From NCBI RefSeq assembly GCF_047555085.1, contig NZ_CP180230.1, forward strand, positions 330,001 through 362,000: DNA of 32,000 nucleotides. The letters run 5' to 3'. The position numbers were made by a program, and so were the translations under genes. Within the stretch, counting starts at the first letter, position 1. The number at the start of each line of letters is the position of its first letter. The notes beneath the pieces are model-generated. The model made no database searches. It was given only the letters and a program-made list of their open reading frames with translations, and was not told the DNA's origin. Origin of the DNA: Candidatus Saccharimonadota bacterium (GTDB lineage Archaea > Nanohalarchaeota > Nanosalinia > Nanosalinales > Nanosalinaceae). Shown here piece by piece: positions 1-32,000 of the stretch.

Positions 1-140
1 TTCTGGCCTAGAATTCCAGAGGCTTCTGGTACAGTTGAGTCTCCGCCGTCGTTGATTGTTCCGTGATTTTCGTTGCCTGAATGATCATAGGCCTTATCTC
101 CACTTTCTTCGTTGAGAGGCCAGTAGCCGACAAGTGTCAC
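1..140 (-). CDS. LamG/concanavalin-A-like lectin domain protein, N-terminal fragment (gene continues beyond window start)
   Basis: Absent from the ORF track because it is under 60 aa. Minus-strand translation from GTG at 140..138 (in-frame TAA two codons upstream) reads (M)TLVGYWPLNEESGDKAYDHSGNENHGTINDGGDSTVPEASGILGQ. This parallels the N-terminus of the 30771..31430 protein (MVLKAYWPLDETSGSTAYDARNSNNGSLNGG..SGLFGSG), the typical opening of Laminin_G_3-type domains. Confidence 0.5.
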   Translation of the reverse strand, partial: MTLVGYWPLNEESGDKAYDHSGNENHGTINDGGDSTVPEASGILGQ

Positions 141-181
141 GTATTACTGTTGATTATTGTTTGTTAAAAATTTGAGAAGTC

Positions 182-203
182 AGAGGCCTTTTTTGAGGCC
201 TCT
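182..203 (-). terminator. Hairpin (AGAGGCC / GGCCTCT, 8-nt loop) followed on the minus strand by a T5 tract; candidate terminator of the 214..1179 gene
   Basis: Perfect 7-bp inverted repeat built from two AGGCCT copies, directly after the stop at 214. The minus-strand sequence downstream reads ..CAAATTTTTAAC..; that ATTTTTAA could also be the TATA box of the 1..140 gene, about 27 nt upstream of its GTG. Confidence 0.35.
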
Positions 204-213
204 CGGAATTTTT

Positions 214-1179
214 TTAGAGCTGTGTGTGTTCTCCGATCAGTGCGTCGTTGAGGTTGACGTCTTTTATTTTTGCGTGCTGATCTAGGATAGAGTTTCTGAC
301 TTCGGAGTCTATGATTTTTGCGTTGGGGAAGACGATGCTTTTCTTGACTTTGGAGTTTTTGACTTCTGCGCCTTCCATGACGATGGAGTCGTCGTCGACT
401 TCAGAGTCCTTGACTGTTCCCTCGACGATTTTGTCGTCTGTTATGCTTGCGACTGCGTTGAGGTATCCCTGCGGTGTTCCGACGTCGAACCATTCTCCGT
501 CGAAGCTGTAAGCGTACATCTCTCTTTCCTCGTGAGCCCATTCGATAAGCCTTCCTGGCTCATCCAGGTACTGATCCTCCGGTATATCCGTCTCTGCGAA
601 GTGTTCCTCGTATCTGTCGAAGAGATCCAGATCTTCCTCTGGGAAGAAGTACCAGGCGATAGAGGCCAGTGTGGAAGGAGGGACATCAGGCTTCTCCTTG
701 AATCCTACGATCCTGTCGTCGTCGACATCCACGATACCGAACTGTGAGGCCATCTCCTCGCTTTCGACATCGTAGACAACGTTCGCAGGAGCATCTTTCT
801 CCTTCACAAATTCTATGAAGTCTGCTCCGTCAAAGCTCTGATAGTTATCTCCTCCGACGATCACGAGATCGTCTGAGAGGCCTTCGCTTTCTATCAAGTT
901 GATTATGGCGCCGATAGTACCTGGCTTGTCGTGTTCGTTGTCCTGATCCTCTGAAACAACTCTAACATCTTCGAAGTCAGAGGCCTCGACGTATTCGTCG
1001 AAGTCGGGAGCGAACTTGTCGTTCGTCGAGATTATTACTTCGTCGACTTCGCCTTCAAGGTCGTCGAGAATGTATTCGATTATAGGTTTCTCACCGAGCG
1101 GAAGAAGTGGCTTCGCCCGATGCTTCGTAACAGGCCACAGACGTGTGGCGTGACCGCCAGCTAGAATTATCGCTTTCAT
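214..1179 (-). CDS. Sugar-phosphate nucleotidyltransferase (glucose-1-phosphate thymidylyl/uridylyltransferase family) with C-terminal left-handed beta-helix repeats
   Basis: N-terminus MKAIILAGGHATRLWPVTKHRAKPLLPLGEKPII is the NTP-transferase signature G-x-G-T-R-L..K-P-L. The C-terminal ~90 aa show hexapeptide-like periodicity (IVEGTVKDSEV..IVMEGAEVKNSKV..). I chose the ATG at 1179 because the ORF-track start at 1197 is a TTG. Confidence 0.9.
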   Translation of the reverse strand: MKAIILAGGHATRLWPVTKHRAKPLLPLGEKPIIEYILDDLEGEVDEVIISTNDKFAPDFDEYVEASDFEDVRVVSEDQDNEHDKPGTIGAIINLIESEGLSDDLVIVGGDNYQSFDGADFIEFVKEKDAPANVVYDVESEEMASQFGIVDVDDDRIVGFKEKPDVPPSTLASIAWYFFPEEDLDLFDRYEEHFAETDIPEDQYLDEPGRLIEWAHEEREMYAYSFDGEWFDVGTPQGYLNAVASITDDKIVEGTVKDSEVDDDSIVMEGAEVKNSKVKKSIVFPNAKIIDSEVRNSILDQHAKIKDVNLNDALIGEHTQL

Positions 1180-1270
1180 CGCTATCAGATAATACAAAGT
1201 AATACATCACAAGTTAAAAACTCTTACCTTCCGATGGAGATAAATCAATCAGGCCTCTCAAATAACTACG

Positions 1271-2347: not shown

Positions 2348-2351
2348 AACT

Positions 2352-3026
2352 TCAGACAATCTCAAGTCTCCGTCCTAGATCTTCAAGATCATCTACTTCG
2401 TACTCAGGCCTCACACTGCACTTGATATTGCTTCTGTTGACCAGCGCAGCATCTATACCGGCGTTCTTTGCAGCTTCTATATCTGATTCTTTGTCGCCGA
2501 TGTAAAGAGAAGGCCTCTGCTTCAGTTCCGCTTCAGCAATCTGGATATGATCGGGATGAGGCTTGCGGAGCTTGAGATCGGAGAAACTCTCTACTCCGCG
2601 GTAGAAATCGAAGTAGGCCTTCAACTCGAAAAACTTCATAGTAGTCTCGACAGCACTCTCCGGTGCATTACTTATCAGACCTAGTTTTCTATCTTCTCTA
2701 TGTACGGCATCAAGAAAAACTCTTGCATCGCTGTACAGCCTGAAATCCCCGCTTTTAACCTGCTGGATGCGTGCAAGACTAGTAGTCTCAGCTATAAGTT
2801 TCCAGACGTTTCCCGGATCAAGATCGTATTTTTTACAGGCCTCTATACATTTCTCCCGGCCGTGATCACCGAGGAAAAACTCCATTTCCCTTCTTGAAAG
2901 TCTTTCAGGATTGATGCCTGTCTCATTCAAGGCCTTTTCCACGGCGCTGAACTTCCAGTCCTCGTTCTCCACAAGTGAGTTCAGTATAACGCCGTCCATA
3001 TCAAGAATCACTGATCCATACTTCAT
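2352..3026 (-). CDS. HAD-superfamily hydrolase (phosphatase, beta-PGM/PGPase-like subfamily)
   Basis: HAD motif I ILDMDGVIL, motif II LISNA, and motifs III/IV K..(x)..GDKESDIEAAKNAGI. Confidence 0.85.
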   Translation of the reverse strand: MKYGSVILDMDGVILNSLVENEDWKFSAVEKALNETGINPERLSRREMEFFLGDHGREKCIEACKKYDLDPGNVWKLIAETTSLARIQQVKSGDFRLYSDARVFLDAVHREDRKLGLISNAPESAVETTMKFFELKAYFDFYRGVESFSDLKLRKPHPDHIQIAEAELKQRPSLYIGDKESDIEAAKNAGIDAALVNRSNIKCSVRPEYEVDDLEDLGRRLEIV

Positions 3027-3076
3027 AACAGAAAACTGGAAACTCCTCGTTTAAACAGATTTGTGGAAAACTTTTC

Positions 3077-3256
3077 CTATCCAAAACTACGCATAAAAAA
3101 CACGAACAGGCCTCCAGCAACAGCAAGACAGATTAAAGAGAAGTACACGAATTTTTTCCAGGCCTCTGATCCCTCGCGCCGAAGTAAAAGGCCTCCGGTC
3201 ATCGCTGCAGCAGCCACTACTACAAGCGCAACTATGGTTGAAAGCACTCCGGCCAT
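3077..3256 (-). CDS. Possible 59-aa two-helix membrane protein
   Basis: Hand translation of the minus strand gives MAGVLSTIVALVVVAAAAMTGGLLLRREGSEAWKKFVYFSLICLAVAGGLFVFFMRSFG*. That is two hydrophobic helices joined by a basic loop. It falls below the ORF-track size cut-off, and no homolog is recognised. Confidence 0.3.
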   Translation of the reverse strand: MAGVLSTIVALVVVAAAAMTGGLLLRREGSEAWKKFVYFSLICLAVAGGLFVFFMRSFG

Positions 3257-3405
3257 ACCTCTAAAATTGATTTTCCCGATAAAAAATCTTCTGTTGAAAA
3301 ACCTTTACCGGTAAAAAGTTTACAGGCCTCAAACAAATTTACAACAGATGCCAGCGGTCGAAAATTACAGAATCTTCTCGGCCCGGCAGAAACAGAAAGT
3401 TTCGT

Positions 3406-3494
3406 GCCAGCGTGGCGGAGTCTGGCTGAACGCGGCAGATTCGAGATCTGCTGGCCCATATGCGGCCTCCCCGGTTCAAATCCGGGCGCTGGCG
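3406..3494 (+). tRNA. tRNA-Ser (anticodon CGA), class II with long variable arm, no encoded CCA, no intron seen
   Basis: Acceptor stem GCCAGCG/CGCTGGC with discriminator G. Anticodon stem GCAGA/TCTGC has loop TTCGAGA, giving anticodon CGA. The long variable arm is GGCCCATATGCGGCCTC and the T arm is CCCGG-TTCAAAT-CCGGG. Confidence 0.9.
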
Positions 3495-3496
3495 AT

Positions 3497-4678
3497 TCAA
3501 TTTCCAATTATGATTCTTTCTCCTTGAGGCCTGAAAATTGCTCCTGAAAGTATTCGAGGCCTTTCAGCTTCTATAGTTATCGATCCTTTCCAGAGGCCTG
3601 AGATTTTTGTGGAGTTGGCTAGATTGAAGGTGGCCTGTCCATTCAAGGCCTCGAATACGGAGGAAGATTCTGACTGGAAAATCGAGGATACGTTGAAGTT
3701 CTGTCCGCTTACTTCGTGTGTTGAGTTCGAGATGCATTCATTGACTGGGCCTCTTTTGTCGCAGATTGCTAGATCGCTTTTGTATTTTATCAGTACGATT
3801 CCGGAGCCTCCGTTTCCTCCGTTTCCTCCGTCTCCACTGTCTGTTGTTCCTGATCCTCCGCCTCCTCCTGTGTTTGGCATTCCGTTTTCTCCGTTATCGT
3901 TTACTCCTTGCCCTCCGTTTCCTCCGCCTCCAAGGCCTCCGGTTGCCCATTCTGATGGGCTGTAAAGATAGTCTCCTGATGTTGAGGATCCGTCATGTGA
4001 TCCTCCTCCCCCTCCTCCGGCGAAGTATCCGTTTTCTCCGTATTCATCTCCGAAGACGTCTCCAAGGTATATTCCTTGTCCGCCGTCTCCCGGTTTTCCG
4101 CTGGTTCCTGTTGTACCTGTTTCTCCTGGCTCTGTTGCTCCTCCGCCTCCTCCATGATTGTACCAGCTGTTTGACTGTCCGTTTCCTCCGTCATTTACGT
4201 ATCTTGAAAGATTGTCCGAGCTGGCTGTCAGGCCGTTTCCTCCTGTAGTTGTACCTCCTCCACCAGAGCCTCCATCATTTCCCTGTTCTCTTCCACTGTA
4301 TGATCCTCCTCCGCCTCCTCCCAGCGCAGTGATGCTTCCGAATTCTGAGTTTTCTCCATTGTTTCCATCCTGTGCTGTACCTGTTCCGTCACCGTCTCCG
4401 CCTAGGCCTCCAGCTCCGACTGTTATACTGTAGTTATCTTTTGAAATATTGATTGTGCCATAGACTGCTTCTCCTGCACCGCCTCCACCTCCGTGTCTGC
4501 CGGCACCTCCGCCTCCTCCACCTACTACAAGTATAGTTGCTTCATCGACGTTGTCAGGAACGTCCCACGTATGTGTGCCGACTGCTGTAAAGGCCTCTAC
4601 TTTCTCTTCTGCGGAGACAGTGACTGTGAGGGAGAGAACTAGAAAAATCATTAAGAACGCTGCGTATATTTTTCTCAT
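3497..4678 (-). CDS. Secreted glycine-rich protein (ALK-type 'Gly_rich' / polyglycine-II-like domain) with a Cys-containing beta-rich C-terminal domain
   Basis: Sec-type signal peptide MRKIYAAFLMIFLVLSLTVTVSA|EEK. It is followed by FTAVGTHTWDVPDNVDEATILVVGGGGGGAGRHGGGGGAGEAVYG..ITVGAGGLGG..GGGGGGS.., the pattern of the glycine-rich protein family. Runs of 5-6 Gly recur through about 300 aa. The stop lies 2 nt from the tRNA-Ser 3' end. Confidence 0.8.
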   Translation of the reverse strand: MRKIYAAFLMIFLVLSLTVTVSAEEKVEAFTAVGTHTWDVPDNVDEATILVVGGGGGGAGRHGGGGGAGEAVYGTINISKDNYSITVGAGGLGGDGDGTGTAQDGNNGENSEFGSITALGGGGGGSYSGREQGNDGGSGGGGTTTGGNGLTASSDNLSRYVNDGGNGQSNSWYNHGGGGGATEPGETGTTGTSGKPGDGGQGIYLGDVFGDEYGENGYFAGGGGGGSHDGSSTSGDYLYSPSEWATGGLGGGGNGGQGVNDNGENGMPNTGGGGGSGTTDSGDGGNGGNGGSGIVLIKYKSDLAICDKRGPVNECISNSTHEVSGQNFNVSSIFQSESSSVFEALNGQATFNLANSTKISGLWKGSITIEAERPRILSGAIFRPQGERIIIGN

Positions 4679-4807
4679 TTTTTCAGGAGGCCTCTAAGTT
4701 AACTTGTTTCCGGGTGTTTTTGATGTTTTTCTGGAGAGGGCGTCTGGGTGCCCCGAGTTTTTTATTCGATCCATCCATTTTGACTTTTGTTAGTTTACTG
4801 GTTAGTT

Positions 4808-5674
4808 ATGGCTCAGATTGGAAGCATTAAAGTTGAGACTTCGTCTGGAATTGTTTCTGTCCCTGTGTTTGATCTTGATGATGCTAGTTCTCAGGAGAAC
4901 GATTTTTTGAGGGTTAATACTGGCTCAGGTGTTGGTTTTATTCCTCTCGCTGACAGGAGTAGTGCAGCTTTCCCCTATATTAGGATTCAGACGGCGAATG
5001 GCGTCCTGGCAGCGGATGATAGCATTGTTGAGGAACTTTCCTATTATCTTGAGGATGACTGGAATGATAACAGGCTTTCAAGCAGGAACGGGAGCACTAG
5101 CGGAGGGTCGTACACTGCAGATGATGGAGAAGTTTTGGATACGGCCCGTTACAGGCCTGAATGGACTTATGATGGTGATGGGCTGTCTATCAATGCTCGT
5201 AATGAGAGATTGGAAATTACGGGTGGTACAGGAAATAACAATCATGGATATATGTATACTTCCTCGGAACTGAACTGCGGAACTTTTGAGTGGGATATTC
5301 AGCTAGGAGGGTACACTAGCGATGATTATCATGCGAACAACTGTTCTTTCCAGTTCATGAGGCAGGATGCTAACAACAAGTTGCAGTTAACAGTCAGTAT
5401 AAAATCAGGAGTGGTATTATCCAAGACGGAATCGGGGACAGGCACTACGTTAGTGAGCAACTCAAACGCTATCAAGGGAACGACAACTAATCATACTGTG
5501 CGGATAGAAGTGGAGCCAAATGGAGATGTAGAGCTTTTCATAGACGATGTAAGTCAGGGGAAGGCCTCAAATTCATTCCTGCCAGACTCCAACGAGTTTA
5601 GAATAACTTTATTCGACGACGCTAACGACACTTGGCACACTCAGTACTATATAGACAATCTTAGACTTGGATGA
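4808..5674 (+). CDS. Hypothetical protein: three short N-terminal beta-repeats plus C-terminal ConA-like/LamG-like jelly-roll
   Basis: ATG at 4808; the ORF-track start at 4787 is a TTG. N-terminal repeats are SIKVETSSGIVSVPVFD / FLRVNTGSGVGFIPLAD / YIRIQTANGVLAADD. The C-terminal half (..HTVRIEVEPNGDVELFIDDVSQG...YYIDNLRLG) has the typical LamG/ConA closing strands. No signal peptide. Confidence 0.7.
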   Translation: MAQIGSIKVETSSGIVSVPVFDLDDASSQENDFLRVNTGSGVGFIPLADRSSAAFPYIRIQTANGVLAADDSIVEELSYYLEDDWNDNRLSSRNGSTSGGSYTADDGEVLDTARYRPEWTYDGDGLSINARNERLEITGGTGNNNHGYMYTSSELNCGTFEWDIQLGGYTSDDYHANNCSFQFMRQDANNKLQLTVSIKSGVVLSKTESGTGTTLVSNSNAIKGTTTNHTVRIEVEPNGDVELFIDDVSQGKASNSFLPDSNEFRITLFDDANDTWHTQYYIDNLRLG

Positions 5675-5686
5675 AGATTTCTTTAG

Positions 5687-5736
5687 AGGCCTTATACAGT
5701 CTCTCTAGAATTTCTTGAGAGAAGTTTCTAAGGCCT
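5687..5736 (+). terminator. Imperfect hairpin closed by AGGCCTTA / TAAGGCCT after the 4808..5674 stop
   Basis: An 8-bp perfect stem formed by two AGGCCT copies, with an inner CTCTC..GAGAG pairing. It is followed by the T/A-rich tract tcttttaatatttta, which may also be the thermosome TATA region. Confidence 0.3.
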
Positions 5737-5742
5737 GATATC

Positions 5743-5779
5743 TTTTAATATTTTAACATACATCATCAAAAATAGGTGA
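5743..5779 (+). promoter_or_regulatory. Candidate thermosome TATA element (TTTTAATA, 5743..5750) and Shine-Dalgarno-like AGGTGA (5774..5779)
   Basis: An A/T-rich octamer lies about 43 nt upstream of the ATG at 5789. AGGTGA lies 9 nt upstream of the ATG and is complementary to the conserved 16S 3' end. Confidence 0.4.
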
Positions 5780-5788
5780 ACTTGTATT

Positions 5789-7456
5789 ATGCCAGGATTA
5801 GGAGGACAACCGATTTTTGTTATGTCGGAAGATGCTGAACGTCAAACCGGTGAAGATGCTCAACAGAATAATATTGAGGCCTGTAAGACCGTGGCGAATG
5901 CGGTGCGTACTACTTTAGGCCCGAAAGGTATGGATAAGATGATGGTGGATTCCGTCGGCGATCTTGTTGTTACGAACGACGGAGTTACTATTCTTGATGA
6001 GATGGACTTGGAGCATCCAGCTGCCAAGATGATGGTTGAAGTCGCCGAGACTCAGGAAGAGGAAGTCGGCGATGGAACAACTACAGCTGTAGTCTTGGCT
6101 GGAGAGCTCCTGAAGCAGGCGGAGGATCTCCTTGATCAGGATATCCATCCGACAGTTATTACAAAAGGATACAGACTGGCACGTGAGAAAAGCACTCAGG
6201 TGCTTGAAGATATTTCCGAGGACGTCGATCTTGATGATGAAGATGTTCTTGAGAAAGTTGCGATGACGGCGATGACCGGTAAGTCAGCTGAATCCGCAAG
6301 AGAGTATCTGGCGGAGATCGGTGTCAAGGCCGTTAGACAGGTAGCTGATCAGACTGGCGACAGAATGATTGTTAACAAGGATAATATCAAGCTTGAGAAG
6401 AAAGGCGGTGGCTCTGTAGAGGATACAGAGCTTGTTCAGGGAGTAATCCTTGACAAGGAACGTGTCCAGTCCGGAATGCCTTCGTCAGTCGAGGATGCGA
6501 AGATCGCTCTGCTTGATTCTCCTATCGAAGTCAAGGAGACAAGTACTGATGCCGAGATCAACATCTCCGATCCAAGCCAGATGAAAAACTTTGTAGAACA
6601 GGAGGAAGAACAGCTCAAGGAGATGGTGGAAGCTCTGGATGATGCAGGAGCAAACGTTGTTATCTGCCAGAAAGGCATCGACGACATGGCTCAGCACTAT
6701 CTGGCCAAGAGAGGAATTTTCGCTATCAGAAGAGTTTCAAGCGGAGACATCCAGAAACTTGCCAACGCAACAGGAGCAAACATAATCACAAATATTACAG
6801 GAATAGAGGCCTCTGATCTTGGAGAGGCAGGAACTGTAGAGCAGCAATACATCGGCGGAGAGGCCATGACTTTCGTACAGGACTGTCCAGAGGCCAAGTC
6901 TGTTTCCGTCCTCATCAGAGGAGGAACAGATCACGTAGTCGACGAGATCGAAAGAGCGATGGAAGACGCTATTGGAGCAGTATCCTCAGCCATCCAGCAC
7001 GGTAAAGTAGTCGGTGGGGGAGGAGCAACAGAAGTCGAACTGGCTCAGGATCTCAGAGACTACGCTGACTCAATCGGTGGAAGAGAACAGCTTGCCATCA
7101 ACGCTTTCGCAGATGCACTGGAAGTTATTCCAAGAACACTGGCAGAAAACGCAGGCCACGATCCTATCGACACGCTTGTCGATCTGAGAAACCAGCATGA
7201 TGCCGGAAAGAAGATGGCGGGCATCAACGTTGCCTCAGGTAAATCGGAGGAACTCTACGAACAGGGAGTAGTTGAGCCACGACAGACAAAGACACAGGCA
7301 GTACAGTCTGCTTCCGAATCAGCTGAGATGATTCTGAGGATCGACGATGTCATCGCAGCCAAAGGATTCGACGCCGACGGCGGACAGGGCGGAGGCCCAC
7401 CAGGCGGACCTGGAGGAGGCCCAGGCGGAGGAATGCCTGGCGGCGGCCTGATGTAG
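5789..7456 (+). CDS. ths: Thermosome subunit (group II chaperonin, Cpn60/TCP-1 family)
   Basis: Motifs [35 protein letters not shown] and GGGATE match across the full length. The C-terminal G/P/M-rich tail is [25 protein letters not shown]. Confidence 0.97.
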
Positions 7457-7593: not shown

Positions 7594-8313
7594 ATGGCTA
7601 ATGATGAAGTACAGCTCGGTGATATGGGGGACGATGACTACGAAGTTGTTCCTCTTGGACCTATAAGGAAACTTGAGAGAAGAGTTGAGGATCTTCAGGA
7701 ACAGCAGCAACAGAAAGAGCAGACAGGAGGTTCCGCTAACGAAGAGCTTGTACGTGATATACTGGATATCATGAAGTCGAATCAGAAGATTGTCAACGAT
7801 ATGACAGAGTCGACTCATGAGCTGCGTAACAGTGTAGAGGACTTGACTAATAAGATGGACTCTGTAATTGATAACATGAATTCTTTCATGGATCTTCTTC
7901 AGCAGGCCTCTGAAATGGATATGGAGGGAGAGATTGCTGGGGATCTTGAGCAGCGTGTTGCAGATGCCATTGGAGACAAGATGGATGACATGGTGAGTGA
8001 GGTATCAAAGTCTAATCAGATGATTGCAAATAACTTGGAGGACTTGAATACTCAGATGAGGAAGAATTACTATGCTTCTGAGTCAGGAGGTGGTGTGGCT
8101 AATCAGTCCAGGCCTCAGAACTCCAGGAGAAGACAGCAGTCACAGAATCAGCAGGATCAGGGACAGTCACAGAACTCATCGCAGGGATCCAGAAGACGTG
8201 GTTCAAGCGGTATGGGCCAGCAGTCTGGAGGAAGCAACATGAATATGGGTTCGGATAATTCTAACAGGATGAAAAAGTTGCGAGAGAAATTCGATAAAGG
8301 AAGCGGAGAATGA
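7594..8313 (+). CDS. Hypothetical acidic coiled-coil protein with Q/N/S/R/G-rich low-complexity C-terminus; first gene of the pilus-like cluster
   Basis: No TM segment or signal peptide. The heptad-like helical region runs from LERRVEDLQEQQQQKEQ to NNLEDLNTQMRKN. The tail is NQSRPQNSRRRQQSQNQQDQGQSQNSSQGSRRRGSSGMGQQSGGSNMNMGSDNSN. Its stop overlaps the next ATG (ATGA at 8310..8313). Confidence 0.75.
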   Translation: MANDEVQLGDMGDDDYEVVPLGPIRKLERRVEDLQEQQQQKEQTGGSANEELVRDILDIMKSNQKIVNDMTESTHELRNSVEDLTNKMDSVIDNMNSFMDLLQQASEMDMEGEIAGDLEQRVADAIGDKMDDMVSEVSKSNQMIANNLEDLNTQMRKNYYASESGGGVANQSRPQNSRRRQQSQNQQDQGQSQNSSQGSRRRGSSGMGQQSGGSNMNMGSDNSNRMKKLREKFDKGSGE

Positions 8314-8789
8314 ACAGGAAGGGAGTTACTCCTCTAGTTGGAACTGCATTGCTTATTTTAATCGCTGTGTCTGCCGTTACTTCAGCTGCTGTATTCATAA
8401 GGGATACAACGCAGCAGGTGTCGGACTCGGTTAACGAAAGAATATCTGAAGACGAGATGAGGGAGAACTCCGGTATCGATATCGAATACGCCTATAACAA
8501 CAGTGATGGCAACATATCGCTTGTAGTTAGAAATACAGGCCGCTACACCTTAACAGTTGAGGAGAATAACAACAAATTCTGGAATCTTTACTCTGATGGG
8601 AGGCCTGTAGGATTCACTTATTCTGATGGTTCCGGTGGTCAGAAACTGATTGATCCTGATGCAACTCTGACGCTGCAAACTCAGATAGAGTTCCCGCAAG
8701 GAGATTACACCTCTGTCAATCTTGAAGGCACATACGGCACTTCATCATCGATAATCTGTGATGAATCTGATCCGGACGGAGCCTGTTAG
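8310..8789 (+). CDS. Archaeal type IV pilin-like protein (class III signal peptide, Pilin_N/DUF1628-like N-terminus)
   Basis: MNRKG|VTPLVGTALLILIAVSAVTSAAVFI has a short basic leader, Gly at -1 and then a hydrophobic helix. The protein ends ..ICDESDPDGAC (C-x8-C). Confidence 0.8.
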   Translation: MNRKGVTPLVGTALLILIAVSAVTSAAVFIRDTTQQVSDSVNERISEDEMRENSGIDIEYAYNNSDGNISLVVRNTGRYTLTVEENNNKFWNLYSDGRPVGFTYSDGSGGQKLIDPDATLTLQTQIEFPQGDYTSVNLEGTYGTSSSIICDESDPDGAC

Positions 8790-8873
8790 TGTGTACAAAC
8801 CAACTTTTTCCTATTTGAGGACTCTTGAACTTATTTAAACCAGCGTATCCTATTTTTCTGTACGGGATATTCA

Positions 8874-9407
8874 ATGGAATTATTTGAGCAGAGAAAGGGT
8901 ATTACACCCGTTATTGCGATCGTTCTGCTTCTGATGGTTACAGTTGGAGCTGTGGGTGTTGTATACACACAGTTCAACAGTCTCGTAGGTAATCCAAGTG
9001 ATGAGTTCGAGGATCAGCAGAGAAATCAGGATACAAACATCCGAATTTCTCAGCTACAGACAAACGCTGATCTTCCTGAAAACATCAACAGCTTGGATCA
9101 TACTCCCGCAAATTACGGAAACATCACTATGACACTTCAGAACTCCGGATCAGTTTCGAGGAACACAACTTCGTTTGTGCTCTCGGTATCCGGTGCAGAT
9201 GGAAGCGTCCCAACCAGTGGAGCATACTGCTTCACGGCTGAAGACAGTGTGATTCTTGATCCAGGAGATACCTACGAATGTAACACAGGTATCACTTACC
9301 CACAGGTCACGAACGAAGTAGAGTTCGAGGTCCTTCTAACAGGTTCATCAAAGACCTGGACAGAGACCTGTAGACCTGATGTAACAGGAGCAGAAAGCTG
9401 CGCTTAA
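8874..9407 (+). CDS. Archaeal type IV pilin-like protein (class III signal peptide); candidate major pilin
   Basis: MELFEQRKG|ITPVIAIVLLLMVTVGAVGVVY. It has four Cys, including a terminal C-x9-C (TCRPDVTGAESCA). The gene has its own A/T-rich upstream elements and an oligo-T tract downstream. Confidence 0.8.
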   Translation: MELFEQRKGITPVIAIVLLLMVTVGAVGVVYTQFNSLVGNPSDEFEDQQRNQDTNIRISQLQTNADLPENINSLDHTPANYGNITMTLQNSGSVSRNTTSFVLSVSGADGSVPTSGAYCFTAEDSVILDPGDTYECNTGITYPQVTNEVEFEVLLTGSSKTWTETCRPDVTGAESCA

Positions 9408-9417
9408 AGCAGTTTAT

Positions 9418-9440
9418 CATTTTCTTATTTTTCTTTTCTA
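9418..9440 (+). terminator. Oligo-T termination tract (cattttcttatttttcttttct)
   Basis: Three T4-T5 runs lie within 23 nt, starting 11 nt after the stop at 9407. Confidence 0.4.
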
Positions 9441-9490
9441 TAACTGATTGAAAGTGGAAGAACTTTGCTTTTGAGAGGCCTGTAAGTGAC

Positions 9491-9498
9491 ATTTATAT
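9491..9498 (+). promoter_or_regulatory. Candidate TATA box ATTTATAT for a leaderless transcript starting near the ATG at 9523
   Basis: The centre of the element is about 28 nt upstream of the ATG at 9523, the canonical archaeal TATA-to-TSS spacing. No SD-like element lies between them. Confidence 0.4.
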
Positions 9499-9522
9499 TT
9501 CAGAGTAGGTAATTTGTTGAAT

Positions 9523-10197
9523 ATGCTGTCGAGAAAGGCCCAGATTCAGGCTGTCACAGTTGTTCTACTGACAGGCCTGACTGTAGGTGTTGCCTCCGTA
9601 GTTTATGTATGGGGTGAGCCTATACTTGACAAGAGAGAGTCTCAGGTAGGCCTTGACTCGGTTGAACAGGATGTACTGACTCTTCGGGAAGAGATTTTAC
9701 GTGTCAGTGAGGCAGGTGAAGGAGCGGCTGCTAACGTGGAAATGGACGGCGGTGAAAGCGACTTTGACATTGAGATGATACGTGTGGAGGACAGTATTGA
9801 CTACATAGATATCGTTGTTGATGCTTCGGAGTCCGAGTATCCGGATGGGCGCTGGACTCTGTTGAAAGGAGATAATCAGCGTAACTTATCTATATCGAAT
9901 ACTGGAGACTACGTCCTTGAAGGAGAAGATGAACAGTCGGTACTCCTTGTAAGGCCTCAGTCATCCGTTATAACTTACAGGATAGAGTTCAGGAATATTT
10001 ACTCTGAGAATGCTGAAGGCGCACCGGTGGAGAAGATTGATCTTATTTCACGAGGAGGTGATGTCTCAAGTGGTGGAGCAGAGGTCTACGTAACTAATAC
10101 GGGTACAGAGGTAGATACAGGTGAAGATGGGCTTACATTATCCTCTGGTCAAACCCTTGACAGAAGCCGAACGGAGATAGAAGTTGATCTAAGATGA
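9523..10197 (+). CDS. Pilin-like protein with class III-type N-terminus
   Basis: MLSRKA|QIQAVTVVLLTGLTVGVASVVYVW followed by an acidic extracellular domain. I preferred the ATG at 9523 because the ORF-track start at 9514 is a TTG. Confidence 0.65.
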   Translation: MLSRKAQIQAVTVVLLTGLTVGVASVVYVWGEPILDKRESQVGLDSVEQDVLTLREEILRVSEAGEGAAANVEMDGGESDFDIEMIRVEDSIDYIDIVVDASESEYPDGRWTLLKGDNQRNLSISNTGDYVLEGEDEQSVLLVRPQSSVITYRIEFRNIYSENAEGAPVEKIDLISRGGDVSSGGAEVYVTNTGTEVDTGEDGLTLSSGQTLDRSRTEIEVDLR

Positions 10198-10610
10198 TTA
10201 AAGGGTCTAGAAAAGGACAGTACCTGGCTATTGAGACGGTTCTATCGCTGGGAATCAGTATAGTTGTTGCAACGGCAGTAATAGGTGCTTTCAACAGTTA
10301 CAGGAGCAGTGTTGTTGACGATGTACAGGAAAGGCACATTGACATAATTAATTCGGAGATAATACGAACAGTCTACAATCTGAAGTATATGGACTCGGGA
10401 AGCGGTATCACGCTGGATCTTCCCCAACCACAGACCGGAGAATACACTGTATCGCTTCAGGACTCACAGGTAAGAGTGGATACAGGCAGTGGAGTTGATT
10501 CCCAAGTCATAGATGGAGCTAGATGGGCCTCAGGTTTCAGCGGCTCAACTTCCAGCTCAGAGGTTAAAATCATGAAGCTTGAAAACGAAGTTGTACTGAG
10601 GCCTGGATAG
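10194..10610 (+). CDS. Pilin-like protein (class III signal peptide, RKGQ motif)
   Basis: MIKGSRKG|QYLAIETVLSLGISIVVATAVIGAF. The start overlaps the upstream stop (ATGA). Confidence 0.75.
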   Translation: MIKGSRKGQYLAIETVLSLGISIVVATAVIGAFNSYRSSVVDDVQERHIDIINSEIIRTVYNLKYMDSGSGITLDLPQPQTGEYTVSLQDSQVRVDTGSGVDSQVIDGARWASGFSGSTSSSEVKIMKLENEVVLRPG

Positions 10611-10612
10611 AG

Positions 10613-12310
10613 ATGGGATTCGGTGGACTGGTAGGACGCCTCAGGAAGATAAAGCATCCTGAGTACTACGAAGAAGATGAAGAGGACTCTGAGAAAGCTG
10701 AAGGTGTCAGTCTTCCAGCTCCAGGAGAGTTCAGCGAAGAGATGGTGGAAGAGGCCAAGGACGAGGAGAATCTGACTGATGTTAATATTGCATATCCTCT
10801 GATCCCTCAGGATCCTGATGAAGGGGAAATCGTCTATGCATGGGCACATATCAAATGGGATGAGGAACAGGGAGAGCTTATTTACGAGATAGTGGAGCCT
10901 GAACTTGATGAGGAAACTGCAGAGGCCTATGAGAAGATCGTTGAAATAATGCAGAGAAGTTTTGATGTCAATTTTGAGGATCTTGAATCGGGCAAGGCGA
11001 AGGAGTACCTTGAAGAGAAGATCGACATGATTGTTGACAAGTACAATATCGATGTTCCTGACGATAAAAGAGAGGTAATACGATACTACACGAAAAGGGA
11101 TTTTGCAGGCCTCGGAAAGCTACAGCCACTGATGAACGACACAGAGGTCGAGGATATCTCCTGCGACGGCCTGGATATTCCTGTCTACGCTTATCACAGG
11201 AATCCACGTTTCGGTTCTATCAAGACGAATCTGGTTTGGAGCGAAAAAGAGGAGCTGGACAGCTTCGTCATGAAACTGGCCCAGAGATGTGGAAAATCGA
11301 TTTCTGTTTCCAGTCCATTGCTGGATGGATCCCTGCCAGATGGTTCCCGTGTACAGGCCACTCTGGCAACTGATATCGCAAGGAAGGGATCGAACTTCAC
11401 GATCCGAAGATTTACAGAGGATCCTCTGACACCGATCCACATGATGGATTACGAGACGGAGAACGCCCGTATGATGAGCTATCTTTGGATGCTTGTCGAG
11501 CACGAGAAATCCATACTTGTATCAGGGACTACAGGAGCAGGAAAAACTTCACAGTTGAACGCTCTATCCTTATTTATCAGGCCTGACAAAAAGATCGTTT
11601 CAATCGAGGATACGCCAGAGTTGAGATTGCCTCACGATCACTGGGTGCCGGAAGTTTCACGTTCCGGATTCGGTTCCTCAGCCGAAGAGGGAGGCCAAGT
11701 TACAATGGATAACCTGTTGAAGGAGTCCTTGCGTCAGAGGCCTGAGTACATCATCGTGGGAGAGGTTCGAGGAGCTGAGGCATATATCCTGTTCCAGCAG
11801 ATGGCTACAGGGCACACCGGTCTATCGACGATTCACGCAGATTCGCTTGAGATGCTTATGGATCGTCTGACAACAGAGCCGATTAATCTGTCTCCATCTC
11901 TTATTGAGACTCTGGACTTGATCATGGTCATCGCCAGAATCCGACGTGGAGGAACTTACATCCGAAGGATTATGGGGCTTTTCGAGGTGCGTGGATACGA
12001 CAAGAGGAAAGGTATCGACTCGAATCAGGTGTTTGGATGGGATCCGCAGGATGATAATTACTTCGTTAAGAACAATTCCATGCTTCTGAAAGATATCGCA
12101 GATCAGTCAGGAATGGATTACAAGGATATACAGAAAGAACTGAAAAACCGTCAGCACGTACTGAAATGGATGCAGGAGGAGCAGATCAAGCACTACAGGA
12201 AAGTAGGAGATATTATCAGCCGTTATTACTCGGATCCTCACTCAGTTCTGGAGAAGGTAGGGCAAACATTTAATTCTCAGCAGCCGGAAAACTTGAATAA
12301 TGGAGCTTAA
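10613..12310 (+). CDS. Type II/IV secretion-family ATPase (archaeal FlaI/ArlI/PilB-like, T2SSE domain)
   Basis: Walker A SGTTGAGKTS, Walker B/Asp box EYIIVGEVRGAEA, His box TGHTGLSTIHA. The 565-aa length and acidic N-terminal extension are typical of archaeal pilus/archaellum ATPases. Confidence 0.93.
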   Translation: MGFGGLVGRLRKIKHPEYYEEDEEDSEKAEGVSLPAPGEFSEEMVEEAKDEENLTDVNIAYPLIPQDPDEGEIVYAWAHIKWDEEQGELIYEIVEPELDEETAEAYEKIVEIMQRSFDVNFEDLESGKAKEYLEEKIDMIVDKYNIDVPDDKREVIRYYTKRDFAGLGKLQPLMNDTEVEDISCDGLDIPVYAYHRNPRFGSIKTNLVWSEKEELDSFVMKLAQRCGKSISVSSPLLDGSLPDGSRVQATLATDIARKGSNFTIRRFTEDPLTPIHMMDYETENARMMSYLWMLVEHEKSILVSGTTGAGKTSQLNALSLFIRPDKKIVSIEDTPELRLPHDHWVPEVSRSGFGSSAEEGGQVTMDNLLKESLRQRPEYIIVGEVRGAEAYILFQQMATGHTGLSTIHADSLEMLMDRLTTEPINLSPSLIETLDLIMVIARIRRGGTYIRRIMGLFEVRGYDKRKGIDSNQVFGWDPQDDNYFVKNNSMLLKDIADQSGMDYKDIQKELKNRQHVLKWMQEEQIKHYRKVGDIISRYYSDPHSVLEKVGQTFNSQQPENLNNGA

Positions 12311-13175
12311 ACGCTACGCCGAAATAGCGTATGAACAGTTCGGAGGCCTGGCCCTTGATGTAGTACCCTACTTCCAGGACTTCAACATGACGCTTAACAA
12401 GGCGAATATTAAGCTCTCACTTCCTGAATACATCGCTCTTGCCATAGCATCTGTGTTTCTATCGTTCGGCTTCATGTTCGCAATGTTCGGCACAATATTT
12501 GTCTTGGGATCAGGCCTCTCAGGCCTTGTATCTGCACTGATGCTGTCAATAGTTGTCTCCGGTATCGTGGCAGCTCTGGCATATGTTATACCGCTTCTGA
12601 AGGTTAACAACAGAGCAACTGTAATCCGTGACATGCTTCCTTTCGCAGTAATGTATCTCTCTACACTGGCCGGGACAGGATCATCGATCTCAGAGATGTT
12701 TGAAAATCTTGCAAAAGTAGATGAGTACGGAGAAGTATCTGAAGAGGCCAAAAAAATCCACAGAGATATAGATACTTTTGGAATGGATGTTAACGAGGCC
12801 TTGAGAAGAGGAGCACAGAGAACACCGAGTGAGGACTTCGAGGAACTTCTAAGAGGAATGGAACACATATTAACAACTGGAGGATCCGTAAGAGAGTTCC
12901 TGAGAGAAAGAGCCGCCAAGTTAATGGATGACTACGAGAGAAGAATCGAAAAATTCGCCGATCAGCTAGGCCTCCTCGTTGAAATGTATATTACAATAGT
13001 TGTCGTAGGATCAATAATCTTTACAGCAATGAGCGCCATCATGAGCTCATTCACAGGATTTGCACCTGGCTTTATCGTTGCATTACAGGCCATACTGATT
13101 TTCATAGGCCTTCCGCTGATATCAGGCATGTTTATCCTTTTCATTAAAGGTATAGCACCAGGAGGGATCATGTGA
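12300..13175 (+). CDS. Pilus platform membrane protein, N-terminal half (single T2SSF domain; FlaJ/PilC/TadB-like)
   Basis: TM helices flank a cytoplasmic helical domain (DMLPFAVMYLSTLAGTGSSISEMFENLAK...GGSVREFLRERAAKLMDDYERRIEKFADQLGLLVEMY). The start overlaps the ATPase stop by 11 nt. Confidence 0.85.
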   Translation: MELKRYAEIAYEQFGGLALDVVPYFQDFNMTLNKANIKLSLPEYIALAIASVFLSFGFMFAMFGTIFVLGSGLSGLVSALMLSIVVSGIVAALAYVIPLLKVNNRATVIRDMLPFAVMYLSTLAGTGSSISEMFENLAKVDEYGEVSEEAKKIHRDIDTFGMDVNEALRRGAQRTPSEDFEELLRGMEHILTTGGSVREFLRERAAKLMDDYERRIEKFADQLGLLVEMYITIVVVGSIIFTAMSAIMSSFTGFAPGFIVALQAILIFIGLPLISGMFILFIKGIAPGGIM

Positions 13176-28835: not shown

Positions 28836-28849
28836 AAATTTTCCAAACC

Positions 28850-28857
28850 TTTAATTA
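28850..28857 (+). promoter_or_regulatory. Candidate TATA box TTTAATTA for a leaderless transcript
   Basis: Centred about 26 nt upstream of the ATG at 28880. Confidence 0.4.
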
Positions 28858-28879
28858 GCTGGATAGAATAGTAAGTTCT

Positions 28880-29698: not shown

Positions 29699-29736
29699 AA
29701 AATATTCTCCTTCTCTTGAATTATCAGTTTTTTTAT

Positions 29737-30060
29737 CTAGAACTTCTTCATTAAACCAAACAATCCCCACATCCCTTTGAAGAACAGGCCTGCTGCGATA
29801 TACGTCTTGTAGGCCTCAAACACTGGAGGGGTGCCGGTGAATATTATGGCTGCTGAGAGTACGTCAGCCATGTTTCCTATTACGAATAATGGGAATGGGA
29901 AATGTACAGGCCTTATCATCGTTCCTATCCCTTTGAAAATAAGTATTCCTGCATGTACGGCGGAAATGGGCTCTGGCATGAAAGACTGCGTGAAATACAC
30001 AAGTATACCTGAGCTGACGTCAAGTATTCCCAGTAGATCAGGCCTGAATATTTCGCCCAT
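29737..30060 (-). CDS. Small hypothetical membrane protein (107 aa, about 3-4 TM)
   Basis: Hydrophobic segments throughout. ATG start. Lies 27 nt downstream of the NYN gene on the same strand. Confidence 0.55.
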   Translation of the reverse strand: MGEIFRPDLLGILDVSSGILVYFTQSFMPEPISAVHAGILIFKGIGTMIRPVHFPFPLFVIGNMADVLSAAIIFTGTPPVFEAYKTYIAAGLFFKGMWGLFGLMKKF

Positions 30061-30087
30061 GGAAAAAATGTTTTCCTGTCAAGATTT

Positions 30088-30552
30088 TTATTCCAGTTCC
30101 ACAACGTGATCCGCAGCATTCTTCAATGCAGTCGAAAATCCTGGCTCCATACCCATAACGACTGTCTCTTTCCCATGCTCCTTAGCCTTCTGTATCACAG
30201 GAAGGAAATCTGTATCACGAGTCACAAGTGCGATAACATCGATATCATCGTTGAAAACTGCTTCAACAGCATTTACCGCCATGTAAACATCTACGTCACT
30301 TTCCTTGGCCTTTTCTCCACCTAGACCCAGCTCAGCTTCAAATCCCTGAGATATTATAGCTTCAATAAGCTTATCGGAAGCGTACTGGTTCAGAAATACT
30401 TTTCCAACCTTGATATTTCCAAACTCTCCGGTCTTCTCTCTTAAATGATCAAGATCTAGATCAAACTCCTTTCTAACAACGTTAGGCCCATCAACAAAGA
30501 TAGCAACGTTCTTCCCTCTACTAACAGAATCCTTTATTTTAGATAAAACCAT
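30088..30552 (-). CDS. NYN-domain (LabA/PIN-like) protein, archaeal TIGR00288-type
   Basis: [11 protein letters not shown]...[44 protein letters not shown] matches the NYN/LabA acidic-residue pattern. About 154 aa. Confidence 0.8.
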
Positions 30553-30770
30553 GAAACAATATTTCTCCCACAGCCTTTTTTATCTCACCGCTGAAATAAT
30601 TGGACAAAAATTTTCTCACGTTATCTGAAAAACTTAAATCAAATGTCGACAAAGAGAAGTCTATGGAGGCCTACCAGTATTCACATGATGTAATAGGGTG
30701 TCGAGGCCTCCTTGTATTTCCAAACTTTTCCGAAAAACAGAGAATTTTCCGACGAGAGAGGTATACATAA

Positions 30771-31430
30771 ATGGTGTTGAAGGCTTACTGGCCTCTGGAT
30801 GAAACATCCGGAAGCACAGCATACGACGCCAGAAACAGCAATAATGGAAGTTTGAATGGCGGAGTAACGCAGAACGTCTCAGGCCTCTTCGGTTCCGGAG
30901 CATACAGTTTCGATGGCACTGATGACTATGTGGATGCTGGAAGCAACTCGGATATTGAGCCATCTACAGTCTCTATTTCAGCCTGGATAAAAACCAGTGG
31001 AGGTCATGGAGGCACTTATCCCAGGTATGCGGGAAACAACTGGAGCTTTGCAGGATACAATATCCAGCCATCTTCAGGTTCAGTGGCCATGGAAATAGGG
31101 GATGGTTCCAGTTCTAATACTCTCTCAGCATCGACCGGTATAGAAGACGGATCATGGCATCAAGTAACAGCAACTTACAGAGGAACAGATAATTCCTGGG
31201 CGATATATGTAGATGCTGTACAGGAAAACTCTGGGACGTCCAGCTACTCTCTTGCCTACGGAGGAAACCCTTTCATTATAGGTGCCAATCCATCAAAAAG
31301 CGACGGATTTGCAAATGCAGATATCTGCAATATCAGAATATATGATCATGTGTTAACAGAGCAGGAAGTAAGCTACCTGTACTCTGTAGGACAGAGAGGG
31401 CTACATACCTCAGACATTAGAACTCTGTAA
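30771..31430 (+). CDS. LamG (Laminin_G_3 / concanavalin-A-like lectin) domain protein, no signal peptide
   Basis: AYWPLDETSGSTAYD..NGSLNGG..GAYSFDGTDDYVD...SISAWIK...SWHQVTATY...IYVDAV...IGAN....ICNIRIYDHVLTEQEVSYLY is the canonical Laminin_G_3 pattern. Confidence 0.85.
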   Translation: MVLKAYWPLDETSGSTAYDARNSNNGSLNGGVTQNVSGLFGSGAYSFDGTDDYVDAGSNSDIEPSTVSISAWIKTSGGHGGTYPRYAGNNWSFAGYNIQPSSGSVAMEIGDGSSSNTLSASTGIEDGSWHQVTATYRGTDNSWAIYVDAVQENSGTSSYSLAYGGNPFIIGANPSKSDGFANADICNIRIYDHVLTEQEVSYLYSVGQRGLHTSDIRTL

Positions 31431-31443
31431 AAAAGAATATTTT

Positions 31444-32000
31444 TTACCTGAAAATTTTTCTTGCGTTCACGGTAGAGGCCTCTACAACTTTCTCGTAATT
31501 CGTCTCCTTGATCTCGGCGATTTTCTCAGCACTCTCCTTTACGTTGACAGGTTCGTTCCGTTCTCCACGGTACAGGAACGGCGAATCCGTTTCAAGAAGC
31601 AGTTTTTCAAGGCCTATTCTATCAACGATTTCCTGAACACGGTTCGAATAAAGTACCTGTGTCGTAACGCCGATGAAGTATCCTTTCTCCACAGCTTCCT
31701 CCGCCAGTTCTGGTGCTCCGTTGAAACAGTGAAGCATAACATCTTTGAGATCGTATTCTCCCAGTATCTCAACTGTTCTCTTCTCGGCATCTCTTGTATG
31801 CAGTACGACAGGCTTTCCAAGCTCCTCCGCCAGATCCAGCATCTCCCGGAAAACTTTCTCCTGCTCATCCCTACTTTCGCTCTCCGTTACGTGATGATGG
31901 TCAAGGCCTATCTCGCCTATTGCCACAGGATCATTTTCACGGATCTGCTTTTTTATCCTGTCTATTTCATCGAAACTTTCCGTATACGTCGGATGAAGGC
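31444..32000 (-). CDS. tatD: TatD-family metal-dependent hydrolase/DNase (N-terminus lies beyond window end)
   Basis: AIGEIGLDHHH, VVLHTRDAE, MLHCFNG and LLLETDSPF motifs. The frame stays open upstream of the ORF-track GTG (..LHPTYTESFDEIDRIKKQIRENDPVAIGE..) to position 32000. Confidence 0.88.
   Translation of the reverse strand, partial: LHPTYTESFDEIDRIKKQIRENDPVAIGEIGLDHHHVTESESRDEQEKVFREMLDLAEELGKPVVLHTRDAEKRTVEILGEYDLKDVMLHCFNGAPELAEEAVEKGYFIGVTTQVLYSNRVQEIVDRIGLEKLLLETDSPFLYRGERNEPVNVKESAEKIAEIKETNYEKVVEASTVNARKIFR

Follow-up and report, generated by a model that had tools for sequence, protein, structure and literature searches.

Lineage-specific hyper-abundance of the palindrome AGGCCT in nanohaloarchaeal genomes

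Analysing a 32,000-nucleotide stretch of a nanohaloarchaeal chromosome (NCBI RefSeq assembly GCF_047555085.1, contig NZ_CP180230.1, positions 330,001 to 362,000; hereafter the window), we found that the 6-bp palindrome AGGCCT, a StuI-type site, is hyper-abundant in a lineage-specific manner, and that a directional pressure favours the complete hexamer over every one of its one-letter variants. This pressure is independent of reading frame, strand and coding status, fills about three quarters of the positions where the encoded peptide permits the word, shifts protein sequences and is switchable. No prior description of AGGCCT hyper-abundance in these archaea was found in the searchable literature, and the phenomenon is best regarded, by analogy, as an archaeal counterpart of the highly iterated palindromes (HIPs) of cyanobacteria.

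AGGCCT excess in the window

A programmatic count gives 132 copies of AGGCCT in the window, the first starting at 89 and the last at 31904 (span 89–31909), in line with the about 130 copies that the original prediction had estimated by eye. Together they sum to 792 bases, i.e. 2.5% of the window, at a density of 4.1 per kb, and make AGGCCT the top-ranking hexamer of the window by count. With a GC content of 46.1%, the zero-order expectation is 6.5 copies, both values close to those initially proposed (mid-40s % GC and about 6 copies), and the observed/expected ratio is 20.3. Markov models of orders 1, 2, 3 and 4 predict 7.2, 24.7, 65.5 and 121.8 copies respectively, but the high-order values are circular because the motif itself contributes most of its own 5-mers: 132 of the 177 AGGCC and 132 of the 159 GGCCT fall within AGGCCT. 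The second-ranked palindromic hexamer reaches only 3.4 times its expectation, revealing an excess specific to the complete word, and incomplete or altered words were counted 19 (AGGCCA), 17 (AGGCCC), 9 (AGGCCG), 6 (TGGCCA) and 3 (CGGCCG) times.

This excess was not explained by codon or amino-acid usage. The 31 genes called in the window, which cover 93% of it, are all involved, with 113 copies inside genes and 19 in spacers or at gene borders. Shuffling synonymous codons within each gene (1000 shuffles, proteins and codon usage preserved) yielded 18.1 ± 3.8 coding copies, with a maximum of 31, against the 113 observed (z = 24.7). Copies are distributed over the three codon phases (32, 40 and 41), genes on both strands are affected, and the 19 copies in 2112 bp of non-coding DNA amount to 9.0 per kb, compared with 3.8 per kb in coding sequence. 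A pressure on the DNA itself, as had been proposed from the sequence alone, is thus backed by the shuffling result, by the indifference to phase and strand and by the excess outside genes, and the phase examples given for the pilus-type ATPase gene, at 10923, 11107 and 11579, were all confirmed (Table 1). Of the 20 spacers of at least 10 bp, 10 contain the site, all of them among the 13 spacers longer than 70 bp.

The flanks of the copies are essentially random, with a weak G/C preference at ±1 and no information further out. The extensions to AGGCCTC (58 times) and GAGGCCT (46 times) that had been noticed were recovered, one or the other at 88 of the 132 sites, and no extended motif was found around the intergenic sites. 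A dispersed repeat element (repetitive extragenic palindrome, miniature inverted-repeat transposable element or similar) was considered and rejected, the copies being devoid of a common extended flank and mostly located inside unrelated genes (113 of 132 in unrelated coding sequence). An Rfam search of the window gave no match, so that AGGCCT is not part of a structured RNA family. The three copy pairs that the original prediction had named as closing hairpins all fold (energies in Table 1), which adds little because any two copies of a palindrome will pair.

Separately, other palindromes are avoided in the window, including CTAG (0.34 of expectation), CGCG (0.18) and GCGC (0.31), and GGTACC, GCTAGC, TGCGCA, TAGCTA, GCGCGC and CGCGCG have zero copies; hexamers containing CTAG are also rarer in enriched than in non-enriched relatives.

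Saturation, variant spectrum and distribution among relatives

Permissive positions, where the peptide can encode AGGCCT, comprise Arg-Pro, [K/Q/E]-Ala-[F/L/S/Y/C/W], and x-Gly-Leu if an A-ending codon exists for x. Their occupancy in the window is 77% overall, with 34 of 37 Arg-Pro (92%), 40 of 51 [K/Q/E]-Ala-[F/L/S/Y/C/W] and 39 of 59 x-Gly-Leu positions filled. Related genomes were covered over about 20 kb each, with genes in these loci (denoted L) called as simple longest open reading frames and relationships drawn from distance trees of six proteins. Among them the trait is bimodal, occupancies lying either at 0.44–0.88 or at no more than 0.23: 11 of 44 nanohaloarchaeal species loci are enriched, with occupancies of 0.44–0.84, and the other 33 lie at or below 0.23. 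Mean occupancy is 67% in nine other enriched genomes versus 7% in non-enriched nanohaloarchaea, and the odds ratio between enriched and baseline occupancy, about 44, roughly equates to a population-scaled bias of about 4 per site. The thermosome gene (5789–7456) shows the lowest density of the long genes of the window (1.2 per kb), with two of its five permissive positions used, the smallest share of any gene, and codon selection in a highly expressed gene may oppose the pressure there.

The pressure also reaches the proteins. Permissive peptides number 14.9 per 1000 amino acids, compared with 8.4 in non-enriched genomes (about 1.8 times), and Arg-Pro 3.7 compared with 1.6. At about 40% of the window sites, the non-enriched orthologues carry a residue unable to encode AGGCCT, such as Gly-Ile or Gly-Val in place of Gly-Leu, and Glu-Gly-Tyr or Glu-Thr-Tyr in place of Glu-Ala-Tyr; protein sequences have therefore been altered. 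Sites are shared between genomes 3.4–3.5 times more often than hexamers in general: 67% of AGGCCT versus 20% of hexamers are shared between the window and L001, and 33–36% versus 10% for L007, L030 and L039. Because 67–77% of permissive positions are filled, such sharing is expected without inheritance or selection of individual sites, and shared positions were rejected as evidence for a common ancestry of the sites, since saturation by itself accounts for much of the sharing.

The variant spectrum was assessed as the ratio of one-letter synonymous variants to the motif at permissive positions, in enriched versus non-enriched genomes. This ratio is cut to 0.013–0.14 of baseline in 12 of the 14 variant classes, and depletion affects all six positions, transversions and transitions alike. 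For instance, C>A and C>G stand at 0.021 and 0.033 of baseline, compared with 0.055 for C>T at position 4, and the least-reduced variants are the two outer-position transitions, at 0.36–0.40. Within a given phase, the ratios of transition variants to motif are similar at inner (0.04–0.13) and outer (0.04–0.08) positions. Since all positions and variant types are depleted, the pull acts on the whole hexamer, and since transversions are depleted too, T:G repair of the Dcm/Vsr type is disfavoured as a sole cause. In whole-word counts, outer-position variants are up 1.4–3.8 times relative to non-enriched genomes and inner ones are not, largely reflecting baseline word usage, and AGGTCT/AGACCT stand at 0.73 of the non-enriched level.

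Spacing appears random beyond short distances. The 578 gaps between sites are exponentially distributed, with a coefficient of variation of 1.0, and lack any periodicity at the scale accessible to testing. At short range, pooling the enriched loci (window, L001, L007, L013, L015, L030, L032, L033, L039, L044 and L214), permissive positions 6–20 bp apart are both filled in 6 cases versus 21 expected, and neither is filled in 11 versus 3.9 expected. Hairpin avoidance or a protein footprint could produce this exclusion.

With respect to phylogeny, the excess, as commonest hexamer with a high observed/expected ratio, recurs in ten independent related assemblies or loci. The enriched genomes form four clades, supported by 99–100% bootstrap, within one of the two main nanohaloarchaeal branches of the six-protein tree. 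Enriched genomes include SG9 (CP012986.1), M3_22 (CP046106.1) and the MAGs behind L001, L007, L013, L015, L030, L032, L033 and L044, whereas J07AB43, J07AB56, NHA25 and the MAGs behind L002–L006, L009, L011 and L012 belong to the non-enriched ones. No enrichment was detected in 36 more distant loci (L045–L080, mostly titled Aenigmatarchaeota, Undinarchaeota or unclassified archaea), and no alternative hyper-abundant word was found in any locus, including those of lineages without the AGGCCT excess. Inside an otherwise enriched clade, L009 (occupancy 0.15) is sister to L013 (0.77), both nodes being supported at 100%, which implies one or more losses of the trait. Where its relatives have sites, L009 for the most part carries C-to-T or G-to-A variants at the four inner positions, a decay that needs no special cause because L009 is AT-rich (39% GC). 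The sister lineages of the window, L002–L004, have occupancies of 0.14–0.19 and an intermediate Arg-Pro usage, values compatible with the decay of former sites. Aside from these, L038 (JBLGBK010000003.1), titled as a 'Colwellia polaris' metagenome-assembled genome (MAG), encodes a nanohaloarchaeal ATPase (80% identity) and groups with L005 and L006 in the tree; it is probably a mislabelled bin.

The window itself is an ordinary chromosomal region of a nanohaloarchaeon (DPANN). Its genes are of housekeeping type, including a thermosome subunit, both replication factor C subunits, a Y-family polymerase and an Lhr helicase, together with a type IV pilus/archaellum-like cluster, a thioredoxin and MscS. 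The best matches of the pilus-type ATPase are nanohaloarchaeal (89% to MAG NHA29, 82% to Ca. Nanosalina J07AB43) with a conserved gene order, and the pilus/archaellum-like cluster is syntenic in all nanohaloarchaeal loci, enriched or not.

Mobile DNA, restriction pressure and the search for a driver gene

The excess extends beyond chromosomes. Virus- or plasmid-like contigs from hypersaline samples, with GC contents of 47–52%, carry half-size C5-methyltransferase-like genes related to ORF80 of the Natrialba phage PhiCh1. Five such elements (L322/323, L325–327, L328, L329 and L416) are enriched 8–18 times in AGGCCT, with occupancies of 0.45–0.67 in the four measured. Four related elements are nearly free of the word (L330, 0 versus 5.2 expected; L331, 2 versus 4.9; L333; L417), the counts in such contigs also including 0 versus 1.6 expected. 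L322:1-6568 is a mosaic, with nine copies at 2990–5578 and none in the flanking 3 kb and 1 kb, and its rich segment is 99.85% identical to contig L323. The Halobacterium phage ChaoS9, a cultured relative of the rich elements, holds an ordinary 18 copies versus 17 expected. Whatever makes the sites also acts on, or is matched by, non-chromosomal DNA.

Several observations accompany these elements. L329 (JBHDYC010000009.1, GCA_041894845.1) belongs to a 229-kb contig of an assembly labelled Natrinema sp. H-ect4, a label that may not show the true host; it has a GC content of 50%, 50 AGGCCT in 20.8 kb and a virus- or plasmid-like gene content. Two ThsB-type TIR domain genes (Thoeris-like; L325:14547-16153 and L326:12066-13672) lie in a provirus-like, AGGCCT-rich region of a 458-kb contig, ERZ511487 NODE_10. 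L167, a viral contig (IMGVR_UViG) of 10.8 kb and 52.5% GC, has 22 copies, i.e. 8 times the expectation, with an occupancy of 0.29, and may be another partly converted element. Scanning viral and metagenomic sequences for a three-copy AGGCCT pattern returned mostly tandem repeats and chance clusters; L214, with 63 sites in 14.9 kb and without a methyltransferase, was the only clearly new enriched contig from the metagenome scan.

In several lineages without the excess, the core GGCC is avoided (5 observed versus 48 expected in L023, 14 versus 77 in L012, 25 versus 60 in L005 and 26 versus 59 in L006), AGGCCT being few or absent there, which suggests a HaeIII-type restriction pressure. This avoidance of GGCC or AGGCCT, seen in relatives of the lineage as well as in related mobile elements, makes it likely that enzymes cutting these words circulate in this community. 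AGGCCT is a typical Type II site, and the lineage of the window reverses the sign of classical Type II site avoidance, with saturation instead. The view of the original prediction, that unmodified DNA would meet no enzyme cutting at AGGCCT in this lineage, is reasonable.

The search for a driver gene used known C5-methyltransferases as queries. With M.HaeIII (sequence checked against PDB 3UBT), the matches listed were all close homologues, the named ones being bacterial. With PhiCh1 ORF80, each of the first four contig sets inspected was rich in AGGCCT, but further members broke the association: among the half-size homologues, P0242 (73% identity) lies on a rich contig, and P0194 (76%) and P0199 (74%) on poor ones. 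These proteins of about 275 amino acids match only positions 2–184 of the 329-position dcm model, with motifs I, IV, VI and VIII, and the C-terminal half of dcm, which normally includes the target-recognition part, is not covered. The family is conserved in PhiCh1-like and other halophilic mobile elements. As a negative control, none of 80 generic viral C5-methyltransferase loci proved AGGCCT-rich. Convergent with the methyltransferase-like gene, a second family of uncharacterised proteins (39–42% identity, GxGxxG-like N-terminal motif) occurs in three AGGCCT-rich elements only and is absent from the poor ones, and it returned no match in Pfam, NCBIfam, PADLOC, PDB or IMG/VR.

Table 1. Coordinates of the AGGCCT copies and of associated features (positions in the window unless preceded by a locus)
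Feature	Coordinates	Strand	Remarks
AGGCCT starts (1)	89, 184, 196, 878, 981, 1251, 1584, 1775, 1804, 1884, 2284, 2406, 2511, 2615, 2837, 2930, 3108, 3160, 3189, 3324		
AGGCCT starts (2)	3527, 3557, 3594, 3646, 3933, 4404, 4591, 4688, 5153, 5562, 5687, 5731, 5877, 6807, 7469, 7550, 7904, 8110, 8601, 9476		
AGGCCT starts (3)	9573, 9648, 9952, 10599, 10923, 11107, 11579, 11738, 12344, 12512, 12521, 12796, 12968, 13106, 14052, 14137, 14361, 14473, 15084, 15709		
AGGCCT starts (4)	15870, 16134, 16196, 16316, 16912, 16942, 17466, 18030, 18271, 18411, 18560, 18652, 18972, 19239, 19294, 19508, 19834, 19920, 20292, 20359		
AGGCCT starts (5)	20823, 20890, 20905, 21241, 21373, 21633, 21744, 21890, 22077, 22195, 22262, 22802, 22921, 23609, 23714, 24372, 24917, 24960, 25012, 25192		
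AGGCCT starts (6)	25541, 25680, 25763, 25982, 26094, 26573, 26775, 26938, 26977, 27090, 27264, 27651, 27730, 27770, 27814, 28193, 28245, 28284, 28605, 29216		
AGGCCT starts (7)	29489, 29641, 29786, 29811, 29908, 30040, 30667, 30704, 30881, 31476, 31610, 31904		
Phase 0 example	11579..11584	+	AGG CCT, Arg-Pro, pilus-type ATPase gene 10613-12310
Phase 1 example	10923..10928	+	GAG GCC TAT, Glu-Ala-Tyr, ATPase gene
Phase 2 example	11107..11112	+	GCA GGC CTC, Ala-Gly-Leu, ATPase gene
Copy pair 184/196	182..203		9-bp stem downstream of nucleotidyl-transferase gene (214-1197, minus strand); -15.4 kcal/mol, z -2.9
Copy pair 5687/5731	5687..5736		Imperfect hairpin, spacer before thermosome gene; -22.1 kcal/mol, z -2.8
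Copy pair 30667/30704	30664..30710		In 218-bp spacer 30553-30770; -19.3 kcal/mol, z -1.7 (weak)
Longest spacer	3027..3496		Four copies (3108, 3160, 3189, 3324) upstream of tRNA-Ser(CGA) 3405-3495
Type IV pilus/archaellum-like cluster	8310-16806		T2SSE-type ATPase 10613-12310, two T2SSF-type membrane proteins 12300-14215, several small or unannotated proteins
Half-size C5-methyltransferase-like genes	L325:10001-10852, L328:2143-2976, L329:10001-10843, L416:9786-10634		
Uncharacterised protein family convergent with the methyltransferase-like gene	L325:11244-12359, L328:3295-4200, L329:10865-11632	-	

Possible causes of the AGGCCT excess

Among the analogues named in the original prediction, the closest are HIP1 (GCGATCGC) and the alternate HIPs, e.g. 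the hexamer GGCGCC of Calothrix PCC 7103 (Elhai 2015, PMC4390886; Xu, Lawrence and Durand 2018, PMC5861425); the uptake sequences it also named fit poorly, and the Dcm/Vsr pair, taken as the only cause, is the least convincing in view of the variant spectrum. Like the HIPs, AGGCCT is a short GC-rich palindrome, at least 15-fold over-represented and the dominant oligomer of its genome, found in coding and non-coding DNA irrespective of frame, with a patchy phylogeny including losses and with sites more shared among relatives than other words. The debate on the cause is also the same, opposing methyltransferase-linked biased repair to selection. New with respect to the HIPs are the domain (DPANN archaea), the motif (a StuI-type site), a higher density (4 per kb versus about 0.5–2.5), the near-complete saturation of permissive positions with altered proteins and a measurable amino-acid shift, and the on/off state in sister species. 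In addition, AGGCCT shows no periodicity at the testable scale and no alternate motif in the lineages that are devoid of it, and, after correction for baseline usage, the excess of outer-position variants described by Elhai does not clearly reappear.

As the most likely cause, we tentatively favour a mobile trans-acting factor recognising AGGCCT and coupled to biased mismatch correction. Such a factor would be a dimer recognising all 6 bp of the palindrome; a StuI-type (AGGCCT) DNA methyltransferase, either orphan or embedded in a mobile restriction-modification module, is the simplest candidate. For a mismatch arising inside a site during replication or recombination, correction would favour the strand bearing the complete, marked site; site-completing mutations would be retained and site-breaking ones reverted, which is the ratchet proposed by Elhai for HIPs. 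Acting in trans, the factor would convert all resident DNA, including proviruses and plasmids, and being mobile or dispensable, it would leave sister species saturated or not, with sites decaying by ordinary mutation after its loss. A trans factor of the restriction-modification type is favoured because the palindrome is Type II-like, sister species are on or off, relatives and elements display avoidance, mobile DNA is concerned and spacing is random. Furthermore, each alternate cyanobacterial HIP, including GGCGCC, coincides with a cognate methyltransferase (PMC4390886). Nanohaloarchaea are known to carry Dcm-like methyltransferases, including one of Ca. Nanohalococcus SVXNc to which no motif has been assigned (PMC11001535); GDGCHC, in the same organism, is the only motif given in the two methylome papers on nanohaloarchaea.

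Several points nevertheless weigh against a marking factor coupled to mismatch correction. No methyltransferase, Vsr-like, restriction-type nuclease or other candidate driver gene was found in the window, nor was any candidate recovered by motif search of the 80 syntenic loci. The half-size C5-methyltransferase-like protein was rejected as a driver, as it does not track the trait and represents an N-terminal half only, and the convergent protein family, which looked like a restriction-enzyme candidate, is unsupported, being missing from the rich contig L416. A purely neutral ratchet predicts neither the exclusion of sites less than 20 bp apart nor the tendency of empty permissive positions to coincide between genomes (odds ratios of 10.7 and 17.5). 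Finally, the model of Elhai predicts saturation near one site per kb (PMC4390886), compared with 4 per kb here, where the supply of permissive positions is the only limit, and Xu et al. argue for selection rather than biased repair in the case of HIP1 (PMC5861425).

In a second explanation, unlikely in our view but the best placed of the alternatives, natural selection maintains each site for a cell function. Selected roles could include the binding or marking of DNA by a dimeric protein for nucleoid organisation, segregation or replication control, or a methylation mark of self DNA in a symbiont dealing with DNA of its host. A footprint of such a protein fits the short-range exclusion, the coinciding empty positions and the 3.4–3.5-fold excess of site sharing over hexamers in general are in line with it, and Xu et al. 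concluded the same for HIP1 (PMC5861425). However, sharing is expected anyway with 67–77% of permissive positions filled, and the sites are randomly spaced, favouring neither a particular density nor a period. Sister species would not be expected to differ in a core function of the chromosome, nor should such a function reach virus- and plasmid-like DNA, and about 4000–5000 sites per Mb would each need an advantage above drift, in a small-genome symbiont.

A further step down in probability, the word could be an uptake or recombination signal, comparable to the DNA uptake sequences (DUS) of Neisseriaceae and the uptake signal sequences (USS) of Pasteurellaceae: a surface or pilus receptor would prefer DNA bearing AGGCCT, and recombination would spread site-bearing alleles by molecular drive. 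Such a process would pull towards the complete motif in every frame, whatever the type of variant, and would extend to mobile DNA, as observed, and it explains the whole-site pull equally well. DUS and USS are likewise genome-wide excesses of a short word that molecular drive can maintain, occurring both within and between genes, and here as in Neisseria some spacers contain stem-loops made of two copies; the window also contains a type IV pilus-like cluster, and a 2026 preprint reportedly ties HIP1 to horizontal transfer. In contrast, known uptake sequences are asymmetric, non-palindromic words of 9–12 bp, present at about 1 per kb, shared family-wide and tied to a known competence apparatus, and AGGCCT is a 6-bp palindrome, on or off between sisters, for which neither an asymmetric 9–12 bp motif nor family-wide sharing or co-occurrence with an uptake apparatus was observed. 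The pilus cluster is equally present in non-enriched relatives, no nanohaloarchaeal DNA uptake system is documented in the literature examined, and the AGGCCT-free related mobile elements resemble restriction avoidance rather than the lack of an uptake tag.

Classical very-short-patch repair alone appears improbable. In this scheme, a 5-methylcytosine methyltransferase and a T:G endonuclease or glycosylase would turn AGGTCT and AGGCTT into AGGCCT. Dcm and Vsr raise CCWGG in enterobacteria, and M.MthTI acts with Mig.MthI at GGCC in Methanothermobacter; repair at methyltransferase sites can therefore raise the frequency of a site, and repair in a GGCC context exists in archaea. The reduced level of AGGTCT/AGACCT (0.73) and the decay of L009 mainly via C-to-T and G-to-A at the four inner positions would agree with such repair. 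Yet these systems handle one mismatch type (T:G) at one position and, as far as is known, produce only a modest excess, whereas here the excess is 20-fold and involves all positions and variants: not only the T:G neighbours are lost, all six positions being depleted, with transversion variants depleted as much as or more than transitions and the outer A/T positions pulled too. According to a flux argument, one neighbour pair would cap the gain at about 5-fold with the neighbour nearly emptied, which was not seen. C-to-T decay is unremarkable in the AT-rich L009, and no Vsr motif was found in the window, in the 80 syntenic loci or in 18 site-rich fished loci. Neither the usage of codons, dipeptides or oligonucleotides nor a faulty assembly can account for the excess, as the 122 sites of the fourth-order Markov model are circular (about 7 are predicted at orders 0 and 1), synonymous shuffling yields 18 versus 113 observed, non-coding density exceeds coding density and ten independent related assemblies share the excess.

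HIP-type palindromes have been known for three decades, and the choice between biased repair and selection is still unsettled. AGGCCT offers the same kind of phenomenon in another domain of life, with another word and in 1-Mb genomes. A pressure this strong should have a bearing on analyses of codon usage, phylogeny and binning in these organisms, whose genomes StuI would cut about every 250 bp if the sites were unmodified, and AGGCCT density provides a cheap marker to assign contigs of hypersaline metagenomes, including viruses and plasmids, to the enriched lineages. The bimodality of the trait in close relatives, together with its nested loss, constitutes a natural experiment in which gene presence and absence across a few dozen genomes should name the driver; if a mobile module is indeed responsible, the driver of a HIP-type palindrome would become identifiable by comparative genomics of on/off nanohaloarchaeal sisters. 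It is conceivable, albeit doubtful at present, that a mobile trans-acting module rewrites small archaeal genomes and their resident viruses toward one 6-bp palindrome, changing their proteins, and is gained and lost between sister species. Such a module could combine an enzyme that marks the site with a novel archaeal way of correcting mismatches or heteroduplexes, or represent the first sequence-specific signal of DNA uptake or exchange in archaea.

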